Of a stretch of DNA of 10,884 nucleotides, positions 1 to 10,884 are shown one piece after another (the stretch's first letter is position 1; the number at the start of each line of letters is the position of its first letter). Origin of the DNA: a virus (taxonomy: Duplodnaviria > Heunggongvirae > Uroviricota > Caudoviricetes); the IMG/VR virus record IMGVR_UViG_2695420485_000001, one strand, 5' to 3'. A program made the translations under genes and the position numbers. Under the pieces are notes generated by a model, which worked only from the letters and a program-made list of their open reading frames with translations, was not told the origin of the DNA and ran no database searches.

Positions 1-17
1 AGTTCACTTTGGTTATT

Positions 18-32
18 GCGCTTTGTCAGCGC
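18..32 (-). promoter_or_regulatory. nutL boxB-like hairpin (GCGCUGACAAAGCGC on the leftward pL transcript)
   Basis: Plus strand 18-32 gcgctttgtcagcgc; on the minus strand this gives a 5-bp stem GCGCU/AGCGC with loop GACAA, about 65-80 nt downstream of the pL start. Matches the P22-type boxB as I recall it, not the lambda GAAAA loop. No convincing boxA found by eye. Confidence 0.5.
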
Positions 33-100
33 CGTAGATTCATATTCGAATCGTTGTATATTCACCGCCCTGGTGAGTAGTGCGTCCTGCTGATGTGTTT

Positions 101-163
101 AGTATCACCGCCAGTGGTATTTATGTCAGCACCGCCAGAGATAATTTATCACCACAGATGGTT
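101..163 (-). promoter_or_regulatory. OL1-OL2-OL3 operators with leftward promoter pL
   Basis: Three 17-bp sites: tatcaccgccagtggta (103-119), cagcaccgccagagata (127-143), tatcaccacagatggtt (147-163). Minus strand reads CTGACA-17 nt-GATACT (-35 at 124-129, -10 at 101-106). Near-identical to lambda OL/pL from memory. Confidence 0.85.
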
Positions 164-310
164 ATCTGTATGTTTTTTATATAGATTTATTTTTTTGCAG
201 GGGTGTGTGGCTTGGGAGGTGATCGAGAGATCTGAATTGCGATGTTTAGTGAGTTGTATCTATTAATTTTCAAATAAATACAATTGGTTATGTGTTTTGG
301 GGCGAACGTG

Positions 311-345
311 AGGCAAAGAAAACCCGGCGCGGTGGCCGGGTTTAT
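311..345. terminator. Hairpin terminator closing the leftward immunity operon (tIMM position), possibly bidirectional
   Basis: Stem cccggc (323-328) / gccggg (335-340) with a 6-nt loop. On the minus strand it is followed by UUUUCUUUG, on the plus strand by tttatttatt. Lies immediately beyond the stop of the 216-aa minus-strand gene. Confidence 0.6.
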
Positions 346-996
346 TTATTGCTTAGGAGCTTGTTGTGATGACGATTGGTTAGTTGGAGCGCTCGTTAAT
401 GGTTGCTGTGTCGGTACCTGTATTATAATTGGAGCCGGGCTGGTTACTGATGGTGACTTGTCATTGCCGGAGATAATCCAACTTGAGGCTAACATCACGC
501 CAGACAGAATCACAGTAACTAAAGTCAAGCCAACGGCCATCGCCCACTGAGTCGTTGTAAGTCCCGTTTTCAAACCGCCGATTTCACCTTTAATTTCAGC
601 AATACCTCTCTCAATAGAAGAAAATTGCTGAGTATAATAGGTTTTAAAGTCAGCTGATTCGCGACGCATTTCCGCAGCAATAGACTCTACCTCTGATTTG
701 TTTTGTGAAAGCTTTGCGTCAAGTTCTTCTCTGGACATTCCGCTCACGCTTACCTCCAGGGTATCACTCTTCATCGCTACATCTTCCTTACTTGGGCGCA
801 AACCCGTTTCGTCCATGGCGTATGAAACTCTATTTGATACCTTAGCATCAATACCAATACTTTGGTACTGAGATGGATCCCCATAAGGAGAAACGGTTGT
901 CGCTGCTAGGGTTGCACTAACTATAATACTTGGAAGAACTGATGATGTTGTTCCTGAGGTAGGTTGAACTGAAGAAACTGGCTTCAGTCTTTCCAT
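346..996 (-). CDS. Hypothetical membrane-anchored protein, 216 aa: S/T-rich N-terminus, charged coiled-coil-like middle, one predicted TM helix (WAMAVGLTLVTVILSGVMLASSWII), S/P/T/Q-rich tail
   Basis: Long minus-strand ORF in the position of lambda rexB. Its ATG (996..994) overlaps the stop of the upstream 88-aa gene (ATGGAAAGACTGA), indicating translational coupling. AT-rich relative to cI. No family recognised. Confidence 0.75.
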   Translation of the reverse strand: MERLKPVSSVQPTSGTTSSVLPSIIVSATLAATTVSPYGDPSQYQSIGIDAKVSNRVSYAMDETGLRPSKEDVAMKSDTLEVSVSGMSREELDAKLSQNKSEVESIAAEMRRESADFKTYYTQQFSSIERGIAEIKGEIGGLKTGLTTTQWAMAVGLTLVTVILSGVMLASSWIISGNDKSPSVTSPAPIIIQVPTQQPLTSAPTNQSSSQQAPKQ

Positions 997-1250
997 AGCC
1001 CATTATCCCTGAGAGCTACCTGTAATGATTTTACTAATGCAACAGCTTGATCCGGGCTCATTGAGACTGACATGTTAGGGGTCAACTCAACTTTTACTTG
1101 GAAGCTATTCTTTCCTTGCTCATCAGACTGCATGTGATGCTCAAATTCATGGCGGTAAAAAGTAATGATTGTTTCAGCACGATCAGGCGTAATAAGAACT
1201 GATGTGGCGGTCATGTGCTGAGGTATGATTTTAATAGTGTTATCTGACAT
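984..1250 (-). CDS. Hypothetical soluble protein, 88 aa (MSDNTIKIIPQH...GLWKD), His/Glu-rich; the ORF extends to an ATG at 1391 (135 aa) but that start lacks a Shine-Dalgarno
   Basis: Minus-strand ORF. The internal ATG at 1250..1248 is preceded by AAAAAGGA 7-8 nt upstream; the 1391 ATG has no SD. Stop overlaps the start of the 216-aa gene. No homology recognised. Confidence 0.6.
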   Translation of the reverse strand: MSDNTIKIIPQHMTATSVLITPDRAETIITFYRHEFEHHMQSDEQGKNSFQVKVELTPNMSVSMSPDQAVALVKSLQVALRDNGLWKD

Positions 1251-1442
1251 AAGTATCCTTTTTGTTTCCTTAGTATTTTTTTGCATTGACATCAGAAATA
1301 GCGAATCCACAAGAGTATGAGTAAAGCTAATCAGTTTAGTGATACGGTGACTATTAAAGTGGTAAACCACATCAAAGCTCGCAGAGTGCATACCAGGCTG
1401 TCACACATGACAAAGTAACGAGGATGCCTGATCTCATAGCGC

Positions 1443-1598
1443 TCAAAGAGACATGCCGATAATGGCATTAACCACGCATGACGCCATAAACACGCCGCCA
1501 ACGATGAAGCTGGCTTGGTTCTTCCTGGTAGCGCCAAGAGTCAACAGAACCACTGAAAGGGCAAAAAAAGGTATCGCGATTATGCTGAACGTGTTCAT
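1443..1598 (-). CDS. Small hydrophobic protein, 51 aa, two predicted TM helices (MNTFSIIAIPFFALSVVLLTLGATRKNQASFIVGGVFMASCVVNAIIGMSL); not in the supplied ORF track
   Basis: Hand translation of the minus strand: ATG at 1598..1596 preceded by GAGGT with 5-nt spacing, TGA at 1445..1443. Sits between the cI stop and the 88-aa gene, same orientation as the leftward operon. Strongly hydrophobic composition. Confidence 0.45.
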   Translation of the reverse strand: MNTFSIIAIPFFALSVVLLTLGATRKNQASFIVGGVFMASCVVNAIIGMSL

Positions 1599-1675
1599 GT
1601 TGACCTCAACTTATTTCGATTCTCCATCACCCTTAATCCGCCGCCCCATGTGTTTGTTGTGATTCGTTGCTGGCC

Positions 1676-2392
<717 letters not shown>

Positions 2393-2399
2393 TTAAATC

Positions 2400-2465
2400 T
2401 ATCACCGCAAGGGATAAATATCTAACACCGTGCGTGTTGACTATTTTACCTCTAGCGGTGATAAT
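2400..2465. promoter_or_regulatory. OR3-OR2-OR1 operators with divergent promoters PRM (leftward) and PR (rightward)
   Basis: OR3 tatcaccgcaagggata (2400-2416), OR2 taacaccgtgcgtgttg (2423-2439), OR1 tacctctagcggtgata (2447-2463). PR: -35 TTGACT (2437-2442), 17-nt spacer, -10 GATAAT (2460-2465). Confidence 0.9.
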
Positions 2466-2480
2466 GGTTGCATGTACTAA

Positions 2481-2690
<210 letters not shown>

Positions 2691-2697
2691 GTAACAC

Positions 2698-2743
2698 CGC
2701 TATTTTCACAATGGACATTCGTCCTACGTCGCTGACAAAGCGA
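2698..2743 (+). promoter_or_regulatory. nutR: boxA-like CGCTATTTT (2698-2706) and boxB hairpin UCGCUGACAAAGCGA (2729-2743)
   Basis: Located just after the cro stop, as in lambda. boxB is a 5-bp stem with loop GACAA, the same loop as the nutL element at 18-32. Confidence 0.55.
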
Positions 2744-2772
2744 GTCCCAATATATCTGACCAACTAAGGCCA

Positions 2773-2796
2773 TATGCGTTTCCACGCATACCTTTC
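2773..2796 (+). terminator. Candidate tR1 hairpin between nutR and cII
   Basis: Stem tatgcgt (2773-2779) / acgcata (2784-2790), loop ttcc, followed by CCUUUC. The weak U-tract suggests partial or rho-assisted termination. Confidence 0.3.
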
Positions 2797-2828
2797 AACT
2801 AGCTATTCACTATTGGAAATCATAAGAA

Positions 2829-3125
2829 ATGGAACAAACAAGTTACAGCAAACTATCCCAGCGTGACGTTGATCGCGCAGAAACAGATTTACTCATCAAC
2901 CTGTCAACGCTTACCCAGCGCGGTCTGGCAAAGATGATTGGCTGTCATGAATCGAAGATAAGCAGAACGGACTGGAGATTTATTGCTTCAGTCTTGTGTG
3001 CTTTCGGAATGGCATCAGACATCAGTCCGATTAGTAGAGCTTTTAAGTATGCGCTTGATGGAATCACAAAGAAAAAATCCCCGGTGGCCGCCGGGGACTC
3101 TAAGCAAATTGATATGCAATTCTGA
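2829..3125 (+). CDS. cII: CII-like transcriptional activator, 98 aa; lambda cII homolog but divergent
   Basis: Position between cro and O. HTH segment ESKISRTDW parallels lambda DKSQISRWKRDW and the C-terminus KKKSPVAAGDSKQIDMQF parallels lambda NKKRPAATERSEQIQMEF. The tO hairpin lies inside its 3' end, as in lambda. Confidence 0.8.
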   Translation: MEQTSYSKLSQRDVDRAETDLLINLSTLTQRGLAKMIGCHESKISRTDWRFIASVLCAFGMASDISPISRAFKYALDGITKKKSPVAAGDSKQIDMQF

Positions 3126-3147
3126 GGGAATTACTGGATCAATCAAC
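3071..3147 (-). ncRNA. oop: OOP antisense RNA (promoter pO in the 5' end of O, terminator tO inside the cII 3' end), about 77 nt
   Basis: Minus strand has -35 TTGAGT (plus 3178-3183), 18-nt spacer, -10 ATAATG (plus 3154-3159). Terminator hairpin ccccgg...ccgggg (plus 3079-3096) is followed on the minus strand by AUUUUUUC. Predicted length matches lambda OOP. Confidence 0.7.
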
Positions 3148-3157
3148 AGGAGTCATT

Positions 3158-4057
3158 ATGACAAATACAGCAAAAATACTCAACTTCGGCAGAGGTAACT
3201 TTGCCGGACAGGAGCGTAATGTGGCAGATCTCGATGATGGTTACGCCAGACTATCAAATATGCTGCTTGAGGCTTATTCAGGCGCAGATCTGACCAAGCG
3301 ACAGTTTAAAGTGCTGCTTGCCATTCTGCGTAAAACCTATGGGTGGAATAAACCAATGGACAGAATCACCGATTCTCAACTTAGCGAGATTACAAAGTTA
3401 CCTGTCAAACGGTGCAATGAAGCCAAGTTAGAACTCGTCAGAATGAATATTATCAAGCAGCAAGGCGGCATGTTTGGACCAAATAAAAACATCTCAGAAT
3501 GGTGTATCCCTCAAAACGAGGGAAAATCCCCTAAAACGAGGGATAAAACATCCCTCAAATTGGGGGATTGCTATCCCTCAAAACAGGGGGACACAAAAGA
3601 CACTATTACAAAAGAAAAAAGAAAAGATTATTCGTCCGAGAATTCTGGCGAATCCTCTGACCAGCCAGAAAACGATCTTTCTGTGGTTAAACCGGATGCT
3701 GCAATTCAGAGCGGCAGCAAGTGGGGGACAGCAGAAGACCTGACCGCCGCAGAGTGGATGTTTGACATGGTGAAGACTATCGCACCATCAGCCAGAAAAC
3801 CGAATTTTGCTGGGTGGGCTAACGATATCCGCCTGATGCGTGAACGTGACGGACGCAACCATCGCGACATGTGTGTACTGTTCCGCTGGGCATGCCAGGA
3901 CAACTTCTGGTCCGGTAACGTGCTTAGCCCGGCCAAACTCCGCGACAAGTGGACCCAGCTCGAAATCAACCGTAACAAGCAACAGGCAGCCGTGACAGCC
4001 AGCAAACCAAAACTCGACTTGACAAACACAGACTGGATTTACGGGGTGGATCTATGA
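3158..4057 (+). CDS. O: Replication initiator O, 299 aa
   Basis: Near-identical to lambda O as recalled (MTNTAKILNFGRGNFAGQERNVADLDDGYARLSNMLLEAY...DWIYGVDL). Contains the ori iterons internally. Confidence 0.97.
   Translation: MTNTAKILNFGRGNFAGQERNVADLDDGYARLSNMLLEAYSGADLTKRQFKVLLAILRKTYGWNKPMDRITDSQLSEITKLPVKRCNEAKLELVRMNIIKQQGGMFGPNKNISEWCIPQNEGKSPKTRDKTSLKLGDCYPSKQGDTKDTITKEKRKDYSSENSGESSDQPENDLSVVKPDAAIQSGSKWGTAEDLTAAEWMFDMVKTIAPSARKPNFAGWANDIRLMRERDGRNHRDMCVLFRWACQDNFWSGNVLSPAKLRDKWTQLEINRNKQQAAVTASKPKLDLTNTDWIYGVDL
3505..3640. repeat. Replication origin inside O: four ~19-bp iterons plus an adjacent AT-rich region
   Basis: tatccctcaaaacgaggga, aatcccctaaaacgaggga, acatccctcaaattgggggat, tatccctcaaaacaggggga, followed by cacaaaagacactattacaaaagaaaaaagaaaagattatt. 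Confidence 0.9.
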
Positions 4058-4755
4058 AAAACATCGCCGCACAGATGGTTAACTTTGACCGTGAGCAGAT
4101 GCGTCGGATCGCCAACAACATGCCGGAACAGTACGACGAAAAGCCTCAGGTACAGCAGGTAGCGCAGATCATCAACGGTGTGTTCAGCCAGTTACTGGCA
4201 ACTTTCCCGGCGAGCCTGGCTAACCGTGACCAGAACGAACTGAACGAAATCCGCCGCCAGTGGGTTCTGGCTTTCCGGGAAAACGGGATCACCACAATGG
4301 AACAGGTTAACGCAGGAATGCGCGTAGCCCGTCGGCAGAATCGACCATTTCTTCCATCACCCGGGCAGTTTGTTGCATGGTGCCGGGAAGAAGCATCCGT
4401 TATCGCCGGACTGCCAAACGTCAGCGAGCTGGTTGATATGGTTTACGAGTATTGCCGGAAGCGAGGCCTGTATCCGGATGCGGAGTCTTATCCGTGGAAA
4501 TCAAACGCGCACTACTGGCTGGTTACCAACCTGTATCAGAACATGCGGGCCAATGCGCTTACTGATGCGGAATTACGCCGTAAGGCCGCAGATGAGCTTG
4601 TCCATATGACTGCGAGAATTAACCGTGGTGAGGCGATCCCTGAACCAGTAAAACAACTTCCTGTCATGGGCGGTAGACCTCTAAATCGTGTTCAGGCGCT
4701 GGCGAAGATCGCAGAAATTAAAGCTAAGTTCGGACTGAAAGGAGCAAGTCTATGA
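4054..4755 (+). CDS. P: Replication protein P (DnaB helicase loader), 233 aa
   Basis: Near-identical to lambda P as recalled (MKNIAAQMVNFDREQMRRIANNMPEQYDEKPQVQQ...). ATGA overlap with the O stop. Confidence 0.97.
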   Translation: MKNIAAQMVNFDREQMRRIANNMPEQYDEKPQVQQVAQIINGVFSQLLATFPASLANRDQNELNEIRRQWVLAFRENGITTMEQVNAGMRVARRQNRPFLPSPGQFVAWCREEASVIAGLPNVSELVDMVYEYCRKRGLYPDAESYPWKSNAHYWLVTNLYQNMRANALTDAELRRKAADELVHMTARINRGEAIPEPVKQLPVMGGRPLNRVQALAKIAEIKAKFGLKGASL

Positions 4756-5042
4756 CGGGCAAAGAGGCAATTATTCATTATCTGGAGACGCACAAGAGCT
4801 TCTGTGCGCCGGACGTTGCCGCGCTAACAGGCGCAACAGTAACCAGCATAAATCAGGCTGCGGCTAAAATGGCACGGGCAGGTCTTCTGGTTATCGAAGG
4901 TAAGGTCTGGCGAACGGTGTATTACCGGTTTGCTACCAGGGAAGAACGGGAAGGAAAGATGAGCACGAACCTAATTTTTAAGGAGTGTCGCCAGAGTGCC
5001 GCGATGAAACGGGTATTGGCGGTATATGGAGTTAAAAGATGA
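4752..5042 (+). CDS. ren: Ren protein, 96 aa
   Basis: MTGKEAIIHYLETHKSFCAPDVAALTGATVTSINQAAAKMARAG..., near-identical to lambda Ren as recalled. ATGA overlap with the P stop. Confidence 0.93.
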   Translation: MTGKEAIIHYLETHKSFCAPDVAALTGATVTSINQAAAKMARAGLLVIEGKVWRTVYYRFATREEREGKMSTNLIFKECRQSAAMKRVLAVYGVKR

Positions 5043-5066
5043 CCATCTACATCACTGAGCTAATAA

Positions 5067-5097
5067 CAGGCCTGCTGGTAATCGCAGGCCTTTTTAT
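5067..5097 (+). terminator. Rho-independent terminator between ren and ninB (tR2 position)
   Basis: Stem aggcctgc (5068-5075) / gcaggcc (5084-5090), 8-nt loop, then TTTTTATTT. Confidence 0.65.
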
Positions 5098-5115
5098 TTG
5101 GGGGAGAGGGAAGTC

Positions 5116-5556
5116 ATGAAAAAACTAACCTTTGAAATTCGATCTCCAGCACATCAGCAGAACGCTATTCACGCAGTACAGCAAATCCTTCCAGACCCAA
5201 CCAAACCAATCGTAGTAACCATTCAGGAACGCAACCGCAGCTTAGACCAGAATCGAAAGCTTTGGGCTTGCCTTGGTGACGTCTCTCGTCAGGTTGAATG
5301 GCATGGTCGCTGGCTGGATGCAGAAAGCTGGAAGTGTGTGTTTACCGCAGCATTAAAGCAGCAGGATGTTGTTCCTAACCTTGCCGGGAATGGCTTTGTG
5401 GTAATAGGCCAGTCAACCAGCAGGATGCGTGTAAGCGAATTTGCGGAGCTATTAGAGCTTATACAGGCATTCGGTACAGAGCGTGGCGTTAAGTGGTCAG
5501 ACGAAGCGCGACTGGCTCTGGAATGGAAAGCGCGATGGGGAGACAGGGCGGCATGA
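5116..5556 (+). CDS. ninB: NinB (Orf recombination-mediator family), 146 aa
   Basis: [31 protein letters not shown]..., near-identical to lambda NinB as recalled. The track ORF begins at an upstream TTG (5098); the ATG at 5116 follows a GGGAGAGGGAAG Shine-Dalgarno. Confidence 0.93.
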
Positions 5557-5735
5557 GACGACAGCGACGAAGTTTCACCGACATCATCTGCGAAAACTGC
5601 AAATACCTTCCAACGAAACGCTCCAGAAATAAACGCAAGCCAATCCCAAAAGAATCTGACGTAAAAACCTTCAACTACACGGCTCACCTGTGGGATATCC
5701 GGTGGCTAAGACATCGTGCGAGGAAAACAAGGTGA
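5553..5735 (+). CDS. ninE: Small Cys-containing basic nin protein, 60 aa ([60 protein letters not shown]); best fits NinE by size, NinD not excluded
   Basis: ATG at 5553 overlaps the ninB stop (ATGA). The 60-aa length matches lambda NinE rather than NinD (57 aa); the sequence is recalled from memory, not searched. Confidence 0.7.
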
Positions 5736-5765
5736 TTGACGCGATGATTTATTCGGGGCTATATT
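5736..5765 (+). promoter_or_regulatory. Strong sigma70-like promoter: TTGACG, 18-nt spacer, TATATT
   Basis: -35 at 5736-5741 and -10 at 5760-5765, immediately after the ninE stop, directed rightward toward the inserted module. Confidence 0.5.
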
Positions 5766-5771
5766 CCTCAC

Positions 5772-5848
5772 GCGCCAGCAAAATCTGGCGTCGGGATTAG
5801 CACCCCGGATATCGAAACGGTGCATAACCGCGCTGGCGGTTTTTTTAT
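5772..5848 (+). ncRNA. Candidate short terminated leader or sRNA (~75 nt) from the 5736-5765 promoter, ending at an intrinsic terminator
   Basis: Predicted start near 5772. Internal hairpins cgccag/ctggcg and cggg/cccg. Terminator stem aaccgc (5826-5831) / gcggtt (5836-5841) with loop gctg, followed by seven T. No ORF with a Shine-Dalgarno in the interval. Confidence 0.3.
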
Positions 5849-6010
5849 GCGCTAAGCACAGTCACATTCGCGATTTATGGCGGGCTGTGTGGGGGAGCCG
5901 AAAGGCTCGCCGGATGTTTCGACCGGTAGTGCTAACCCCGCACAGTTCGCCACCACGATGATTAGCACCTGACGGTGGCGAGGTAAAAATTATCGAAACG
6001 CGAGGTCATT

Positions 6011-6688
6011 ATGGCTGTTCAAATTTCTGTCGAAAACCTTTCCCCTGTTACCTATAACCAGATCCCCGTAATTACTACTGAACTGTTGGCTCACCTTTAC
6101 GGAACAAAAATCAAAAACATTTCTGATAACTTTCTGAACAACACGACGCGATTCATGCCCGGAAAGCATTACTTTAAAATTGAAAAAAACGAATTACGCG
6201 AGTTTAAGAACAGACCCGAAACAATCGGGTTAGTTGGTAAAAATGCCCGCGCCCTCATCCTCTGGACAGAACGCGGCGCAGCCCGTCACGCAAAAATGCT
6301 CGAAACCGATCAGGCGTGGGAAGTGTTCGAAAAACTGGAAGACTGCTATTTCAGCCAGTGCGAGAAAAATACTGGCAAACAAGAGAAGAAGCCCAACGGG
6401 CTTTCCGCAAAAGAAACAGACAGCCTTGTATGGCTGTGGGATTATGCCAACCGCTCACAGGCATTGTTCCGTGAGTTGTATCCCGCATTAAAACTGATTC
6501 AGTCTGGCTATTCCGGCATATGCTACGACTACGGTCATGAGTTCTCGTATGTTATTGGAATGGCGAGAGACGTTTTAATTAATCACACACGAGATGTTGA
6601 TATCAATGAGCCAGACGGACCAACGAACCTTCTGGCATGGGAAAGGCTTAAGAACAAAGAGTTGCCGCCTTCACTGCATCGCTACTGA
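6011..6688 (+). CDS. ORF6N (KilA-N-related) domain protein, 225 aa, with an unrecognised C-terminal domain
   Basis: N-terminal ~100 aa fit the ORF6N pattern ([33 protein letters not shown]...[34 protein letters not shown]). GAGGT Shine-Dalgarno 6 nt before the ATG. Followed by its own terminator. Confidence 0.7.
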
Positions 6689-6703
6689 CAATTGACAACT
6701 TAA

Positions 6704-6731
6704 CAAACCCAGCTTCGGCTGGGTTTTTTAT
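6704..6731 (+). terminator. Rho-independent terminator after the ORF6N gene
   Basis: aacccagc ttcg gctgggtt: 8-bp stem, tetraloop, then TTTTTTATT. Confidence 0.75.
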
Positions 6732-6756
6732 TGCTGAATTTTCAATGTGAGAGGAC

Positions 6757-7485
6757 ATGACAATGAATGAGCTGATAAATAGCAATGCCATCAAAATGAC
6801 AAGCATTGAAATCGCTGAGTTGGTGGGAAGTCGTCATGACAAGGTGAAACAATCCATTGAACGACTGGCTGTTCGAGGTGTGATCCGAAATCCCCCAATG
6901 GTGGTTTTCGAAAAAATCAATAACTTAGGATTACTTCGTGGCGTAGAGGCTTACGTTTTTGAGGGCGAACAAGGTAAGCGCGACAGCATTATTGTCGTTG
7001 CCCAGTTGTCGCCGGAATTCACCGCTCGCCTTGTTGACCGCTGGCGAGAACTCGAAGGGGCAACCGCGAAAATACCACAAACCTTTTCTGAGGCATTGCG
7101 CCTTGCGGCCGACCTTGAAGACCAGAAGGCTGAACTGGAGAAACAGCTTGCTCTCGCAGCACCTAAAGTTGAGTTTGCCGATCGAGTTGGCGAGGCCAGC
7201 GGAATTTTGATTGGAAACTTTGCAAAGGTTGTTGGTATTGGTCCAAACAAACTGTTTGCGTGGATGCGCGATCACAAAATCCTTATTGCTTCAGGTGCCC
7301 GGCGCAATGTGCCAATGCAGGAATATATGGATCGCGGCTATTTCACAGTGAAAGAAACAGCGGTCAATACAAATCACGGAATACAGATATCGTTCACCAC
7401 AAAAATCACCGGGCGTGGTCAACAGTGGCTGACAAGAAAGCTGCTAGATAACGGAATGCTTAAAGTAACAGGGGAGGCTGCTTAA
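6757..7485 (+). CDS. Rha-family phage regulatory protein with a KilA-C/ANT-like C-terminal domain (antirepressor or Roi-like), 242 aa
   Basis: N-terminus [30 protein letters not shown] fits the Rha winged-helix pattern; C-terminus [48 protein letters not shown] fits the ANT/KilA-C pattern. GAGAGGA Shine-Dalgarno upstream. Stop overlaps the ninG start (TAATG). Confidence 0.7.
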
Positions 7486-8090
7486 TGGCTAAACCAGCGC
7501 GAAGGAAATGCAAAATCTGTAAGGAATGGTTTCACCCGGCATTCTCAAATCAGTGGTGGTGCAGCCCGGAACACGGAACTAAATTAGCACTCGAACGACG
7601 AAATAAAGAACGCGAAAAGGCGGAAAAAACAGCAGAGAAGAAACGACGACGAGAGGAGCAGAAACAGAAAGATAAAATTAAGATTCGAAAACTCGCCTTA
7701 AAGCCCCGCAGTTACTGGATTAAACAAGCCCAACAAGCCGTAAACGCCTTCGTCAGAGAAAGAGACCGCGACTTACCATGTATCTCGTGCGGAACGCTCA
7801 CGTCTGCTCAGTGGGATGCCGGACATTACCGGACAACTGCTGCGGCACCTCAACTCCGATTTGATGAACGCAATATTCACAAGCAATGCGTGGTGTGCAA
7901 CCAGCACAAAAGCGGAAATCTCGTTCCGTATCGCGTCGAACTGATTAGCCGCATCGGGCAGGAAGCAGTAGAGGAAATCGAATCAAACCATAACCGCTAT
8001 CGCTGGACTGTCGAAGAGTGCAGGGCCATCAAGGCGGAGTATCAACAGAAACTTAAAAAACTGCGAAACAGCAGAAGTGAGGTTGCATGA
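7485..8090 (+). CDS. ninG: NinG (Rap recombination endonuclease), 201 aa
   Basis: [31 protein letters not shown]...CISCG...[11 protein letters not shown], near-identical to lambda NinG as recalled, with the Cys-rich motifs. Confidence 0.9.
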
Positions 8091-8758
8091 ATATCTACGA
8101 AAGAATTGATGGCAGCAAATACCGAAATATTTGGGTAGTTGGCGATCTGCACGGATGCTACACGAACCTGATGAAAAAACTGGAGACGATAGGATTCGAC
8201 ACCAAAAAAGACCTGCTTATCTCGGTGGGCGATTTGGTTGATCGCGGTACAGAGAACGTAGAATGCCTGGAATTAATCACATTCCCCTGGTTCAGAGCTG
8301 TACGTGGAAACCATGAGCAAATGATGATTGATGGCTTATCAGAGCGTGGAAACGTCAATCACTGGATGCTTAATGGCGGTGGCTGGTTCTTTAATCTCGA
8401 TTACGACAAAGAAATTCTGGCTAAAGCTCTTGCCCATAAAGCAGATGAACTTCCGTTAATCATCGAACTGGTGAGCAAAGATAAAAAATATGTCATCTGC
8501 CACGCCGATTATCCTTGTGACGAATACGAGTTTGGAAAGCCAGTTGATCATCAGCAGGTAATCTGGAACCGAGAACGAATCAGCAACTCACAAGACGGGA
8601 TCGTGAAAGAAATTAAAGGCGCGGACACGTTCATCTTTGGTCATACGCCAGCAGTGAAACCGCTCAAATTTGCCAACCAGATGTATATCGATACCGGCGC
8701 AGTGTTCTGCGGAAAGCTCACATTGATTCAGGTACAGGGAGAAGGCGCGTGGGCATAA
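8087..8758 (+). CDS. ninI: NinI Ser/Thr protein phosphatase (lambda PPase), 223 aa
   Basis: Calcineurin-like metallophosphatase motifs GDLHG, GDLVDRG, GNHE; near-identical to lambda phosphatase as recalled. ATGA overlap with the ninG stop. Confidence 0.93.
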
Positions 8759-9237
8759 GAGAACTAAACCTCACCAAAGAACAGCATGAGTGGCTGAATG
8801 GCTGGCTTGAACTGTGGGGCGCATGGGTTTATTCAGGTCGTCTGGAAAAGCGCATGAGCAGCGTAATAGCGAAGTTCATGGAGAGCGTAGAGCCGGGAAG
8901 AGTTATGACAAGACCAATGTGCAATGATGATGATGGAATGTTGATTTCTCAGGTCGTCGATTCCGTCATGTACATTGACAAGAAAGCCTTTGGCATCCTC
9001 CTCAGCTACTACGCTCATGGTTCTTCCAGGCACGCCATTGCATCTTACTATCATCGCGTCGCAAGACCTCGCAAGATGTTATGCCGGGGCGGCGGGCGCA
9101 TTCAAAAACCATCGCTCGCAACCTGTCGACGGGAAGTTGACGAAATCCTTAATGCCTCGTTGTTTATGATTTACCCGGTTCTGGATAGTGCGTTTAAAAA
9201 CCGGAAACGTGTAGAGAAAATTAAACATGTAGCATAG
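8749..9237 (+). CDS. Q: Late-gene antiterminator Q of the non-lambda (phage 82/21, DLP12 QuuD-like) family, 162 aa
   Basis: Occupies the Q slot between ninI and the PR'/tRNA region. Shares WGAW and P-x-C-x-DDD-x-M-I motifs with DLP12 QuuD as recalled; not similar to lambda Q. Likely GTG start at 8749 preceded by GGAGAAGG. Confidence 0.65.
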
Positions 9238-9243
9238 AACGTG

Positions 9244-9272
9244 TTGACATCATTGAGCAAATGAGCAACACT
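9244..9272 (+). promoter_or_regulatory. Candidate late promoter PR' (-35 TTGACA at 9244-9249; -10 uncertain, AACACT at 9267-9272)
   Basis: Consensus -35 immediately after the Q stop, in the position expected for PR'/qut. The -10 is weak, so the transcription start is uncertain. Confidence 0.35.
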
Positions 9273-9282
9273 ATTGGCATAA

Positions 9283-9326
9283 GCTGCCGTTAGTGACTCT
9301 TAAGTTGCAACGGTGGCTTTTTTATT
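9283..9326 (+). terminator. Hairpin plus U-tract just downstream of the PR' candidate (tR'-like, or the Q-modifiable pause/terminator)
   Basis: 9-bp stem gctgccgtt (9283-9291) / aacggtggc (9309-9317) with two G-U pairs and a 17-nt loop containing the palindrome GTTGCAAC, followed by TTTTTTATTT. Confidence 0.45.
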
Positions 9327-9327
9327 T

Positions 9328-9402
9328 GGGTCAGTCGTATAAAGGTCATTACGGAAGGCTGTTAACCTTCTTATCGTGGTTCGAGTCCACGCTGTCCCGC
9401 CA
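9328..9402 (+). tRNA. tRNA-like gene, 75 nt, anticodon loop CUGUUAA (GUU, Asn-type); one U-U mismatch in the acceptor stem
   Basis: Manual cloverleaf: acceptor gggtcag/ctgtccc (6 of 7 paired), D-arm gtat-aaaggtca-ttac, anticodon stem gaagg/ccttc, T-arm cgtgg-ttcgagt-ccacg, discriminator G, encoded CCA. Confidence 0.55.
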
Positions 9403-9407
9403 AACAT

Positions 9408-9483
9408 GCTGGTTTAGCTCCAATGGTAGAGCAACTGACTTGTAATCATCAGGTCGCCAGTTCGATTCCGGTAGCCGGCACCA
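9408..9483 (+). tRNA. tRNA-Thr-like gene, 76 nt, anticodon UGU (loop CUUGUAA); weakened anticodon stem and one T-stem mismatch
   Basis: Resembles E. coli tRNA-Thr(UGU) as recalled (GAGCAACTGACTTGTAATCA...AGGTC...CCAGTTCGATTCCGGTAG...CACCA). Acceptor gctggtt/agccggc includes two G-U pairs. Only 3 of 5 anticodon-stem pairs form (tcatc instead of tcagt). Confidence 0.6.
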
Positions 9484-9486
9484 TAT

Positions 9487-9561
9487 GCGGGTACCGTATA
9501 ATGGCTATTACCTCAGCCTTCCAGTCTGATGATGCGGGTTCGATTCCCGCTACCCGCTCCA
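9487..9561 (+). tRNA. tRNA-like gene, 75 nt, anticodon loop CUUCCAG (UCC, Gly-type by manual fold); C at position 8 and a C-U mismatch closing the anticodon stem
   Basis: Perfect 7-bp acceptor gcgggta/tacccgc, D-arm gtat-aatggcta-ttac (same architecture as the first tRNA-like gene), T-arm gcggg-ttcgatt-cccgc, encoded CCA. Confidence 0.5.
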
Positions 9562-9573
9562 GATTTATTATCA

Positions 9574-9598
9574 GGCTCGCTTCGGCGGGCTTTTTTTG
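9574..9598 (+). terminator. Rho-independent terminator after the tRNA cluster
   Basis: gctcgc ttcg gcgggc, a 6-bp stem with one G-U, then TTTTTTT. Confidence 0.7.
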
Positions 9599-9649
9599 TA
9601 TCTGCGTTACACCATTAACTAATAAATCGAGTGCTTATCAGGAGGCTAT

Positions 9650-9874
9650 GTGAAAAAGCTGATGGTGACGATTGGTCCGTTCGAAACAGAAGTTAGTTTT
9701 CGTGTCGTTCAGGGGGAGAGTGTACTTGTTGAAGATGTATTTCATGGAAAATCAACAGGTCCTTATGTAAAAGAATATTTTGTCGACGCCACGGATGAAA
9801 ATATTGAGGTGGTGTACGATTCCGTCAATCACCCTAATTTGATCATTAAGGCAAAATTGAAACCACTTTATTGA
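9650..9874 (+). CDS. Hypothetical small protein, 74 aa
   Basis: AGGAGG at 9640-9645, GTG start at 9650 with short 4-nt spacing; alternative ATG at 9662 is far from the SD. No family recognised. Located between the tRNA cluster and the downstream late region. Confidence 0.5.
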   Translation: MKKLMVTIGPFETEVSFRVVQGESVLVEDVFHGKSTGPYVKEYFVDATDENIEVVYDSVNHPNLIIKAKLKPLY

Positions 9875-9926
9875 TCTGAGCGGGAGCAATCATAAAATAT
9901 CTCTGGGTACCCATAAGGAGATAAAT

Positions 9927-10136
9927 ATGTTTGTTGCTGAAGGGGTAATGGAAGATAAGGACAACAAAGGATGTGTTAAAGGTTGGGCTGTGGTAAGAAA
10001 CTCGCCATGGCATCTTGTTGGGGTTTTTGCGACAGAGGAAGACGCGGAAATGGAAGCAAGAAAGACGGGAGATGAGTACGAGGTTCACTATGGCTCGCAT
10101 CGAACAGGAAGTGATGATTTTGTCTGGGGGGAGTAA
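9927..10136 (+). CDS. Hypothetical small acidic protein, 69 aa
   Basis: Strong AAGGAG Shine-Dalgarno 7 nt before the ATG at 9927. Followed by a terminator. No family recognised. Confidence 0.6.
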   Translation: MFVAEGVMEDKDNKGCVKGWAVVRNSPWHLVGVFATEEDAEMEARKTGDEYEVHYGSHRTGSDDFVWGE

Positions 10137-10169
10137 CAGTCGTTTAACCCCAGAATAATCCCGTAACTG

Positions 10170-10195
10170 AGGTCGCTATTGGCGGCCTTTTTTTG
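10170..10195 (+). terminator. Rho-independent terminator after the two small ORFs
   Basis: ggtcgc tattg gcggcc stem-loop followed by TTTTTTT; near-duplicate of the 9574-9598 terminator and its downstream motif. Confidence 0.7.
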
Positions 10196-10326
10196 TATCC
10201 GCGCCACGCCCGGCGCATATCAACCACAGAGCCTTTCGGGGGTGAGCTTACGGAGTGGTCAGTGTGACTTTCTCTGTGGGCAGATCGCTCCCGGGCGTTG
10301 GCTCACCCACCCAAAGGAACGTCACG

Positions 10327-10758
10327 ATGTTTGGTATTTTTGGTAAAAAAGCCCGCCGAGCGGCAGTGGAAATTAAAAAGTTTGAGAAACGTGATCTGGC
10401 ACAGGCGGTTATTAATGCTGCCTATCTGGTGGCCTATGCAGATGGTGAATGTGAGGCTTCAGAGAAAGCGAAGATCGAGCAGGTCTTGCGTAACCAGCCT
10501 GCGTTGTCCGCGTTTACGTCAGAAATTAATGCGATTAGCGCAACCATTATCGGTCAGCTGGATACGAACTTTAAAACTGGTCGTCGAGCGGCATTGCGTG
10601 AAATTGAAGATGTGAAACACGATACGCGTGAAGCGGAAGATGTGCTGGATGTGGCGGTGGCCATTGCGGAGGCAGACGGCGAAATTGAGCCGGAAGAGCG
10701 CAAGGTGCTGGAAGAGATTGCCGGTGTTCTGGGTCTTCGTCTGGAGAATCACCTGTGA
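10327..10758 (+). CDS. TerB-like (tellurite-resistance TerB family) domain protein, 143 aa
   Basis: From the ATG at 10327 (MFGIFGKKARRAAVEIKK...); the track ORF begins at an upstream alternative start. Two VA-x-ADG-E acidic repeats (LVAYADGECEASEKAKIE and VAIAEADGEIEPEERKVLEEIAGVLG) typical of TerB. Confidence 0.65.
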   Translation: MFGIFGKKARRAAVEIKKFEKRDLAQAVINAAYLVAYADGECEASEKAKIEQVLRNQPALSAFTSEINAISATIIGQLDTNFKTGRRAALREIEDVKHDTREAEDVLDVAVAIAEADGEIEPEERKVLEEIAGVLGLRLENHL

Positions 10759-10884
10759 CGGTAAAACTGCGCCTGGCTGTGGCTGCACTCCTGCTGTTTC
10801 TGGTGGTGATGGTGGATTTCACCAGCAGAATCATGTCGGTGCTGGCGGATGGGGTGCTGGTCTGCGGCATTGTGGTATTGCTGT
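10755..10884 (+). CDS. 5' part of a membrane protein (VTVKLRLAVAALLLFLVVMVDFTSRIMSVLADGVLVCGIVVLL...), continues beyond the window
   Basis: GTG at 10755 overlaps the TerB-like stop (GTGA), suggesting translational coupling. Hydrophobic reading frame with no stop before the window end. Absent from the ORF track because it is open-ended. Confidence 0.45.
   Translation, partial: MTVKLRLAVAALLLFLVVMVDFTSRIMSVLADGVLVCGIVVLL

Follow-up and report, generated by a model that had tools for sequence, protein, structure and literature searches.

The left operator and promoter region (OL/pL) of the IMG/VR record IMGVR_UViG_2695420485_000001, a Caudoviricetes sequence, carries in its operators two single-base differences from phage lambda. 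Do these differences change the immunity of the prophage, are they neutral natural variation, or do they alter its regulation in another way? In the following, "the window" is the whole stretch of DNA that was analysed (10,884 nucleotides), and the operator coordinates within it were transferred from the annotated GenBank records EF120460 (mEp234) and NC_001416 (lambda). The OL/pL region and its surroundings contain the following features:

18 to 32, minus strand: nutL boxB GCGCTGACAAAGCGC, downstream of pL (EF120460 (mEp234) annotation, offset 904)
94, minus strand: predicted pL transcription start (mapped from the EF120460 annotation)
101 to 106, minus strand: pL -10 hexamer GATACT, unchanged (EF120460 annotation and promoter scan)
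103 to 119, plus strand: OL1 TATCACCGCCAGTGGTA, canonical (EF120460, NC_001416 and alignment)
124 to 129, minus strand: pL -35 hexamer, CTGACA in the window and TTGACA in all relatives (alignment and promoter scan)
127 to 143, plus strand: OL2 CAGCACCGCCAGAGATA with a private A>G at 129, half-site position 3 (sequence and alignment)
129, plus strand: private substitution A>G (alignment and searches)
147 to 163, plus strand: OL3 TATCACCACAGATGGTT with a private G>A at 154, position 8 of the consensus half (sequence and alignment)
154, plus strand: private substitution G>A (alignment and searches)
315 to 343, no strand given: Timm terminator hairpin, end of the leftward cI operon (EF120460 annotation and terminator scan)

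The letters of the window are cagcaccgccagagata at 127-143 and tatcaccacagatggtt at 147-163. A sequence-only reading of this DNA had compared them with lambda and had named one changed base in each of OL2 and OL3. The alignment to NC_001416 bears this out, and the lambda sequence used there was correct: OL2 differs from lambda by one base (129, G instead of A), and so does OL3 (154, A instead of G; lambda TATCACCGC, window TATCACCAC). By the coordinates of the annotated records both changes lie inside the 17-bp CI/Cro operators, as had also been claimed, and position 129 lies in the -35 hexamer at 124-129 on the minus strand, where the OL2 change turns TTGACA into CTGACA. The strings TATGTCAGCACCGCCAGAGATAATTTATCAC and GATAATTTATCACCACAGATGGTTATCTGTA mark the variant alleles and can be used as k-mer queries.

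Three 17-bp operators with TATCACCGC-type half-sites follow each other at the lambda spacing (7-bp and 3-bp spacers) and align without gaps to the lambda and mEp234 operators. On the minus strand, a sigma-70 promoter whose -10 overlaps OL1 and whose -35 overlaps OL2 reads into nutL (boxA and boxB mapped from EF120460), and the cognate lambda-type CI and Cro as well as OR1-3 are present in cis. Every testable defining feature was thus found, and the OL/pL of the window is, judged by its sequence, a lambda-immunity left operator and promoter of the HK97/mEp234 subtype. The creation of a new promoter on either strand was considered and rejected, as the scan finds only pL and no other promoter was seen by eye. 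The boxB GCGCTGACAAAGCGC is one that we take to be of the P22/HK97 type and not lambda's GCCCTGAAGAAGGGC, which would fit a non-lambda N upstream of the window. The open reading frame across OL (93-266) has no exact match on record.

The sequence-only reading had used lambda as its reference. Both bases do differ from lambda, but lambda is the wrong baseline, and the region differs from it at many other positions. Window 1-340 is 98.5% identical to mEp234, HK106 and HK97 and 89% identical to lambda (over window 62-340), and window 1-3165 is 98.7% identical to HK97. On this comparison, the element is an HK97/mEp234-type lambda-immunity prophage. The repressor genes and the right operator were compared as well:

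1676 to 2389, minus strand: cI repressor, 237 aa, identical to mEp234 CI (protein comparison)
2400 to 2463, plus strand: OR3 (2400-2416), OR2 (2423-2439) and OR1 (2447-2463) (comparison with EF120460)
2490 to 2690, plus strand: cro, identical to mEp234 Cro (protein comparison)

CI is 99% identical to that of lambda, with the exchanges T3A in the N-terminal arm and K71N (initiator methionine counted), and Cro is 98% identical, with K39N. The window and mEp234, which have the same CI and Cro, also have in common the G>A at 2454 in OR1. HK97, mEp234 and HK106 (EF120460, EF120461, NC_002167) have the same layout as the window, with nutL, pL, OL1-OL2-OL3 and Timm, and gp48/gp49-type genes replace rexAB in them, as they do in the window. 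These records are reportedly the set of Degnan et al. 2007. Compared with this group, most departures of the window from lambda are nothing unusual for this known type of wild immunity region. Positions 129 and 154 stand out because their bases are also missing from the true nearest relatives (the prophages of MS 119-7 and TB354, see below) and not because they differ from lambda. HK97, mEp234 and HK106 have A and G where the window has G (129) and A (154). In the alignment, all six references (lambda NC_001416, mEp234, HK97, HK542, HK544 and CL707) have A at 129 and G at 154, and these two are the only operator columns in which the window departs from lambda and the five wild lambda-immunity phages.

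Between Timm and cI, at the position of rexB/rexA in lambda, the window has two open reading frames on the minus strand, at 346-996 (216 aa) and 984-1391 (135 aa). No Pfam match was found for these counterparts of HK97 gp48/gp49, and the annotated length of the one at 984-1391 varies between records (88, 102 or 135 aa).

Closer relatives were sought in 5,426 complete E. coli genomes and then compared base by base. The prophage of E. coli MS 119-7 (NZ_CP146653) matches window 1-3161 throughout, save 129 and 154, and the prophage of E. coli TB354 (NZ_AP038814) matches window 1-4352 with the same two exceptions; unlike the window, both have the canonical OL2/-35 and OL3. The next differences between TB354 and the window are at 4353, 4939 and 6661, so that positions 129 and 154 make up two of the five differences in window 1-6909, and mosaic divergence starts near 6910. 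The chance that both of two random substitutions in 4352 bp hit the 51 operator bases is (51/4352)^2 or about 1.4e-4, and the chance that at least two of five substitutions in 6909 bp fall there is about 5e-4, or about 2e-3 when six operators are counted; all three probabilities are nominal and post hoc, as it was the location in operators that had drawn attention to the site. Despite the post hoc statistics, the clustering of the changes in the operators is not what uniform drift predicts. Among the collections searched, both changes are derived and private to the window sequence, as far as these comparisons of sequences go.

A pair of changes that are 25 bp apart, with identical DNA around them, is also a possible pattern of local error, and the deposited sequence might contain sequencing or assembly errors or changes engineered in the laboratory. 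Such an artefact would be in line with the uniqueness of the alleles in every collection searched, and the antirepressor-like protein of the window (ANT/KilAC domain, 242 aa, 6757-7485) likewise has no exact match in an index of 153 billion gene positions. Both changes are, however, clean transitions outside of homopolymers and Dam/Dcm motifs, and random errors have no reason to strike two functional positions. Moreover, the quality of the window is high elsewhere, with reading frames intact where TB354 is frameshifted. We therefore consider an artefact to be quite improbable.

The prophages of MS 119-7 and TB354 are visibly decaying, with IS insertions in both. The N gene is truncated in the MS 119-7 prophage and in a third relative, 20KM2222. 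In the TB354 prophage, the integrase contains an internal stop, and the antirepressor, the homologue of the antirepressor-like protein of the window, is frameshifted at window-equivalent 6910.

Towards its right-hand end, the window has another mosaic structure than MS 119-7 and TB354. Mosaic joints are found at about 5556-8090 and 8736-10884, and the left 6.9 kb are nearly identical to the TB354 prophage. The Ren protein of the window is very common and adjoins many different immunity regions, and lambdoid phages with other types of immunity share the NinG allele (7485-8090). The end of the window with Q, the tRNAs and the TerB-like gene (tciA) is about 96% identical to phage JLK-2012. Downstream of the Q antiterminator gene there are a tRNA-Asn(GTT) at 9328-9402 and a tRNA-Gly(TCC) at 9487-9561. 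JLK-2012 has Asn, Thr and Gly tRNAs in a row, whereas the window has Asn and Gly with an 84-nt gap between them, which may hold a degenerate tRNA-Thr or mark a missing one.

The same variants, for which recurrence in related prophages had been proposed as a check, were found in none of the IMG/VR loci, E. coli genomes, phages and metagenomes searched. With a degenerate 45-mer we obtained 71 IMG/VR contigs and 18 GTDB contigs, the latter mostly lambda contamination, and the pattern-selected loci (95) all have A at 129 and G at 154. This sample is conditioned on the canonical remainder of the 45-mer, and hence a second one, unbiased by the OL sequence, was chosen by cI: 80 IMG/VR loci were taken by CI protein identity, and OL was located by alignment in 75 of them. 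A at 129 and G at 154 were present in all 75, and also at the equivalent positions of Sakai Sp1, O103 ML775 and O157 F8492. The 45-mer with both variants had no megablast match in the complete E. coli genomes or the phage collection. A control probe with only A154 matched 531 E. coli records, each with a mismatch (none at 100%), which means that either single variant in the canonical context would have been detected. Furthermore, 21-mers with each variant had no exact match in IMG/VR, and 37-39-mers with the variants had none in the metagenome collection. Neither base occurs in the more than 600 other lambda-type OL regions covered. Import by recombination from another operator type was rejected as the origin of the changes, as the donor sequence is absent from all collections searched.

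Canonical lambda OL was also found in GTDB assemblies of unrelated taxa, among them Nocardioides, Vibrio, Shewanella, Pseudomonas and Enterococcus. These contigs, several of which are about 48.4-48.5 kb long with low coverage, look like contamination with lambda control DNA.

Natural polymorphism at OL is frequent. About half of the 75 cI-selected loci differ within window-equivalent 95-175, including the operators and the -35, and the recurrent changes are C>T at position 8' of OL1 and OL2, T>C at position 1 of OL3 and several spacer changes. The natural -35 variant TTGGCA (window-equivalent 126), with a predicted cost of about +3.9 kBT, is present in two of 74 IMG/VR loci and in E. coli O157:H7 F8492, so weakened pL alleles are not unique to the window.

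The two changes of the window could thus be ordinary polymorphisms, functionally silent and located in operators by coincidence. The background divergence of 1.3% from HK97 predicts about 0.7 changes in 51 bp, the OL2 change is predicted to be neutral for CI (see below), and comparable single alleles are present in nature at 1-3% (one OL3 at 4.0 kcal/mol and two TTGGCA loci), all of which would agree with silent variation or, in the case of the single alleles, drift. This explanation does not account well for nearest relatives that are otherwise identical over 3.2-4.35 kb, nor for the absence of both bases from the other OL regions. Moreover, the natural polymorphisms in operators affect positions 1 and 8' and the non-consensus half, at a predicted cost of at most 0.4 kcal/mol, whereas changes are costly at G8 of the consensus half and at the first T of the -35. 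Silent variation therefore appears unlikely to us. Neutral natural variation, which the sequence-only reading had offered as an alternative, does not fit comfortably either: natural OL polymorphism avoids these positions, and the change at 154 hits one at which each substitution in OR1 cost 2.5-2.7 kcal/mol.

One of the natural changes, the G>A at 8' in the non-consensus half (plus-strand C>T at operator index 10), turns up at three different operators in wild lambda-immunity phages. It is found in OR1 of the window (2454) and of mEp234, in OL1 (window-equivalent 112) of 16 of 74 IMG/VR loci and in OL2 (136) of 12 of 74. It looks like a parallel, tolerated polymorphism at one operator position (0.4 kcal/mol each), possibly linked to the T3A arm variant of CI. 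The G>A in OL3 of the window was considered as another instance of this change and rejected, since the natural one affects the non-consensus half (0.4 kcal/mol) and that of the window the consensus half (2.7 kcal/mol).

From published energy tables we infer every quantitative effect as well as the phenotype. For the binding of CI, we used the free-energy changes of Sarai and Takeda for every single substitution in OR1 (reprinted in PMC2194778). There, the exchange of C12-G30 for T-A at consensus position 8 of OR1 costs 2.7 kcal/mol and all three substitutions at this position cost 2.5-2.7, while the cost is only 0.4 kcal/mol for G>A at 8' in the non-consensus half, and A>G at position 3 costs about 0.3 kcal/mol in the preferred orientation and about 0.1 in the other (PMC2194778). 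Measurements of lambda CI on Stx-phage operators (PMC10742460) cover positions other than those of the window changes. The additive model that was built from the OR1 table assumes additivity and transfer from OR1 to OL3, and its values are those of lambda CI. In kcal/mol relative to OR1, it gives -0.2 for OL1, 0 for OR1, 1.1 for OL2, 1.5 for OL3, 2.2 for OR3 and 3.0 for OR2. The accepted operator order OL1~OR1>OL2>OL3>OR3>OR2 is thereby recovered, which lends some confidence to the model.

In this additive model, OL2 of the window moves from 1.1 to 1.4 kcal/mol, and the change would be close to neutral for CI. OL3 is predicted to rise from 1.5 kcal/mol to 4.2, and so to be weaker than OR2 (3.0), on OR1/lambda CI values applied to a window CI that has T3A. 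Across 74 natural loci, the predicted OL3 values are 1.5 (60 loci), 1.9 (12 loci), 2.0 (one locus) and 4.0 kcal/mol (one locus), and OL3 of the window is the weakest predicted among the 75 sequences. On these values, the change at 154 would effectively disable OL3 for CI. In the lambda co-crystal (1LMB), the arm in which T3A is located reportedly touches the central base pairs in the consensus half, and T3A might alter the tolerance at operator position 8.

Besides OL2, the change at 129 affects the promoter. In the consensus scan, the pL of the window reads CTGACA-17-GATACT with 9/12 matches (minus strand, 129-101) and that of the nearest relative TTGACA-17-GATACT with 10/12. The window thus carries what reads as a promoter-down allele of pL, with the -35 moved off consensus at a high-information position (TTGACA to CTGACA). 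In the classical lambda pL -35 "sex" mutants, too, it is a point change in the TTGACA hexamer overlapping OL2 that lowers leftward early transcription.

The size of the effect was estimated with the energy matrix for sigma-70 by Lagator et al. 2022. A library of lambda pR mutants had served to fit this matrix, and one of lambda pL mutants to validate it; the data of PMC3592454 cover the -10 region only. In this matrix, C for the first T of the -35 costs +4.95 kBT, the second-largest penalty in the -35 element (Lagator et al. 2022). The predicted pL energy ranges from 9.3 to 13.25 kBT across 74 natural loci, and the window with 14.25 kBT lies at the extreme, as the weakest of 75. Predicted pL occupancy falls from 0.86 to 0.04 in a simplified single-configuration calculation with the Lagator chemical potential, in which IHF, upstream effects and alternative registers are ignored, and the true drop may be smaller than this estimate. 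CTGACA is thus predicted to be a substantial pL down-mutation. That the OL2 change should weaken pL, as first read from the sequence, is supported as a prediction by the +4.95 kBT, taken from a matrix that had been validated with mutants of pL, and by the consensus scores of 9/12 and 10/12. The OL2 change is therefore expected to act on the promoter and hardly on the binding of CI.

Classically, lambda vir arises through mutations in its operators, and virulence needs the loss of repression at OL1/OL2 and OR1/OR2. Since both changes of the window are in CI/Cro operators, they could stand for altered immunity, i.e. an escape from or a changed response to the lambda-type repressor, or for a step towards virulence. 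However, OL1 and OR1-3 are as in the relatives, CI and Cro are unchanged (identical to mEp234) and the shift at OL2 is predicted to be only about 0.3 kcal/mol. The site that would be strongly affected is OL3, which does not repress pL, and the -35 change would lower the expression of pL and not raise it. The large loss of CI affinity at OL1/OL2 and OR1/OR2 that marks a lambda vir-type allele is not predicted for the window. The reading of the operator changes as altered immunity, which had been raised for this locus, did not hold up, and we regard it as highly improbable; the immunity specificity should be unchanged.

The account that we favour, with moderate confidence, is that of two private derived mutations in OL/pL which together would give a weaker pL and a defective OL3 at unchanged immunity specificity. 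Through the A>G at 129, binding of CI to OL2 would be nearly untouched, and initiation at pL would go down severalfold to tens-fold. A weaker pL would mean less N, cIII, kil, red and int-xis early-left function after induction or infection. Through the G>A at 154, the conserved G8 of the OL3 consensus half is lost, and OL3 would be mostly empty at lysogenic CI levels. In lambda, OL3 aids CI at OR3 in the shutdown of pRM through the OL-OR loop, and its loss would be expected to raise CI about two-fold and to destabilise the loop slightly. In an OL3- mutant, cI mRNA rises to about 2.5 wild-type units and looping falls from 79% to 60% (PMC3708714). In the laboratory OL3-4 mutant of lambda (Dodd et al., Hensel et al.), the lesion is likewise confined to OL3 and should prevent its occupancy by lysogenic CI, as predicted for the window. 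OL3-4 is an engineered allele with a known effect, a higher pRM activity, whereas the window has a single natural G>A whose effect is predicted only. The prophage of the window would probably have more CI. The net result would be a prophage which is more tightly locked and attenuated, with both changes acting in the same direction.

This pattern fits host-level selection against induction, and it also fits the decay of a prophage for which the left operon has become dispensable. Decay is suggested by the relatives MS 119-7, TB354 and 20KM2222, which show IS insertions, a truncated N and a broken integrase (N lies outside of the window). If the pair is adaptive, which we consider doubtful, the prophage would have been "locked down" by cis-regulatory point mutations instead of an IS insertion or deletion. 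One mutation would weaken the early-left promoter and the other would end the OL3-dependent autorepression of cI and raise the repressor, and the host lineage would lose fewer cells to spontaneous induction or to the toxicity of the pL operon.

The two changes together are a small but non-random regulatory variant of a well-known switch. The alleles are new to the collections searched, while the system and the expected consequences are textbook; the finding is thus one at the level of alleles and adds no new mechanism. As the lambda switch is the best-quantified gene circuit, natural alleles at high-cost positions are directly interpretable and testable. If the predictions fail, the T3A arm variant of the wild CI would read position 8 differently from lambda CI. 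If they hold, the prophage of the window would be a natural OL3-minus, pL-down double mutant, with which one can ask whether long-range cI autorepression and full pL strength are kept by selection in wild prophages. Such an allele could show whether host lineages tame their prophages via subtle regulatory point mutations.
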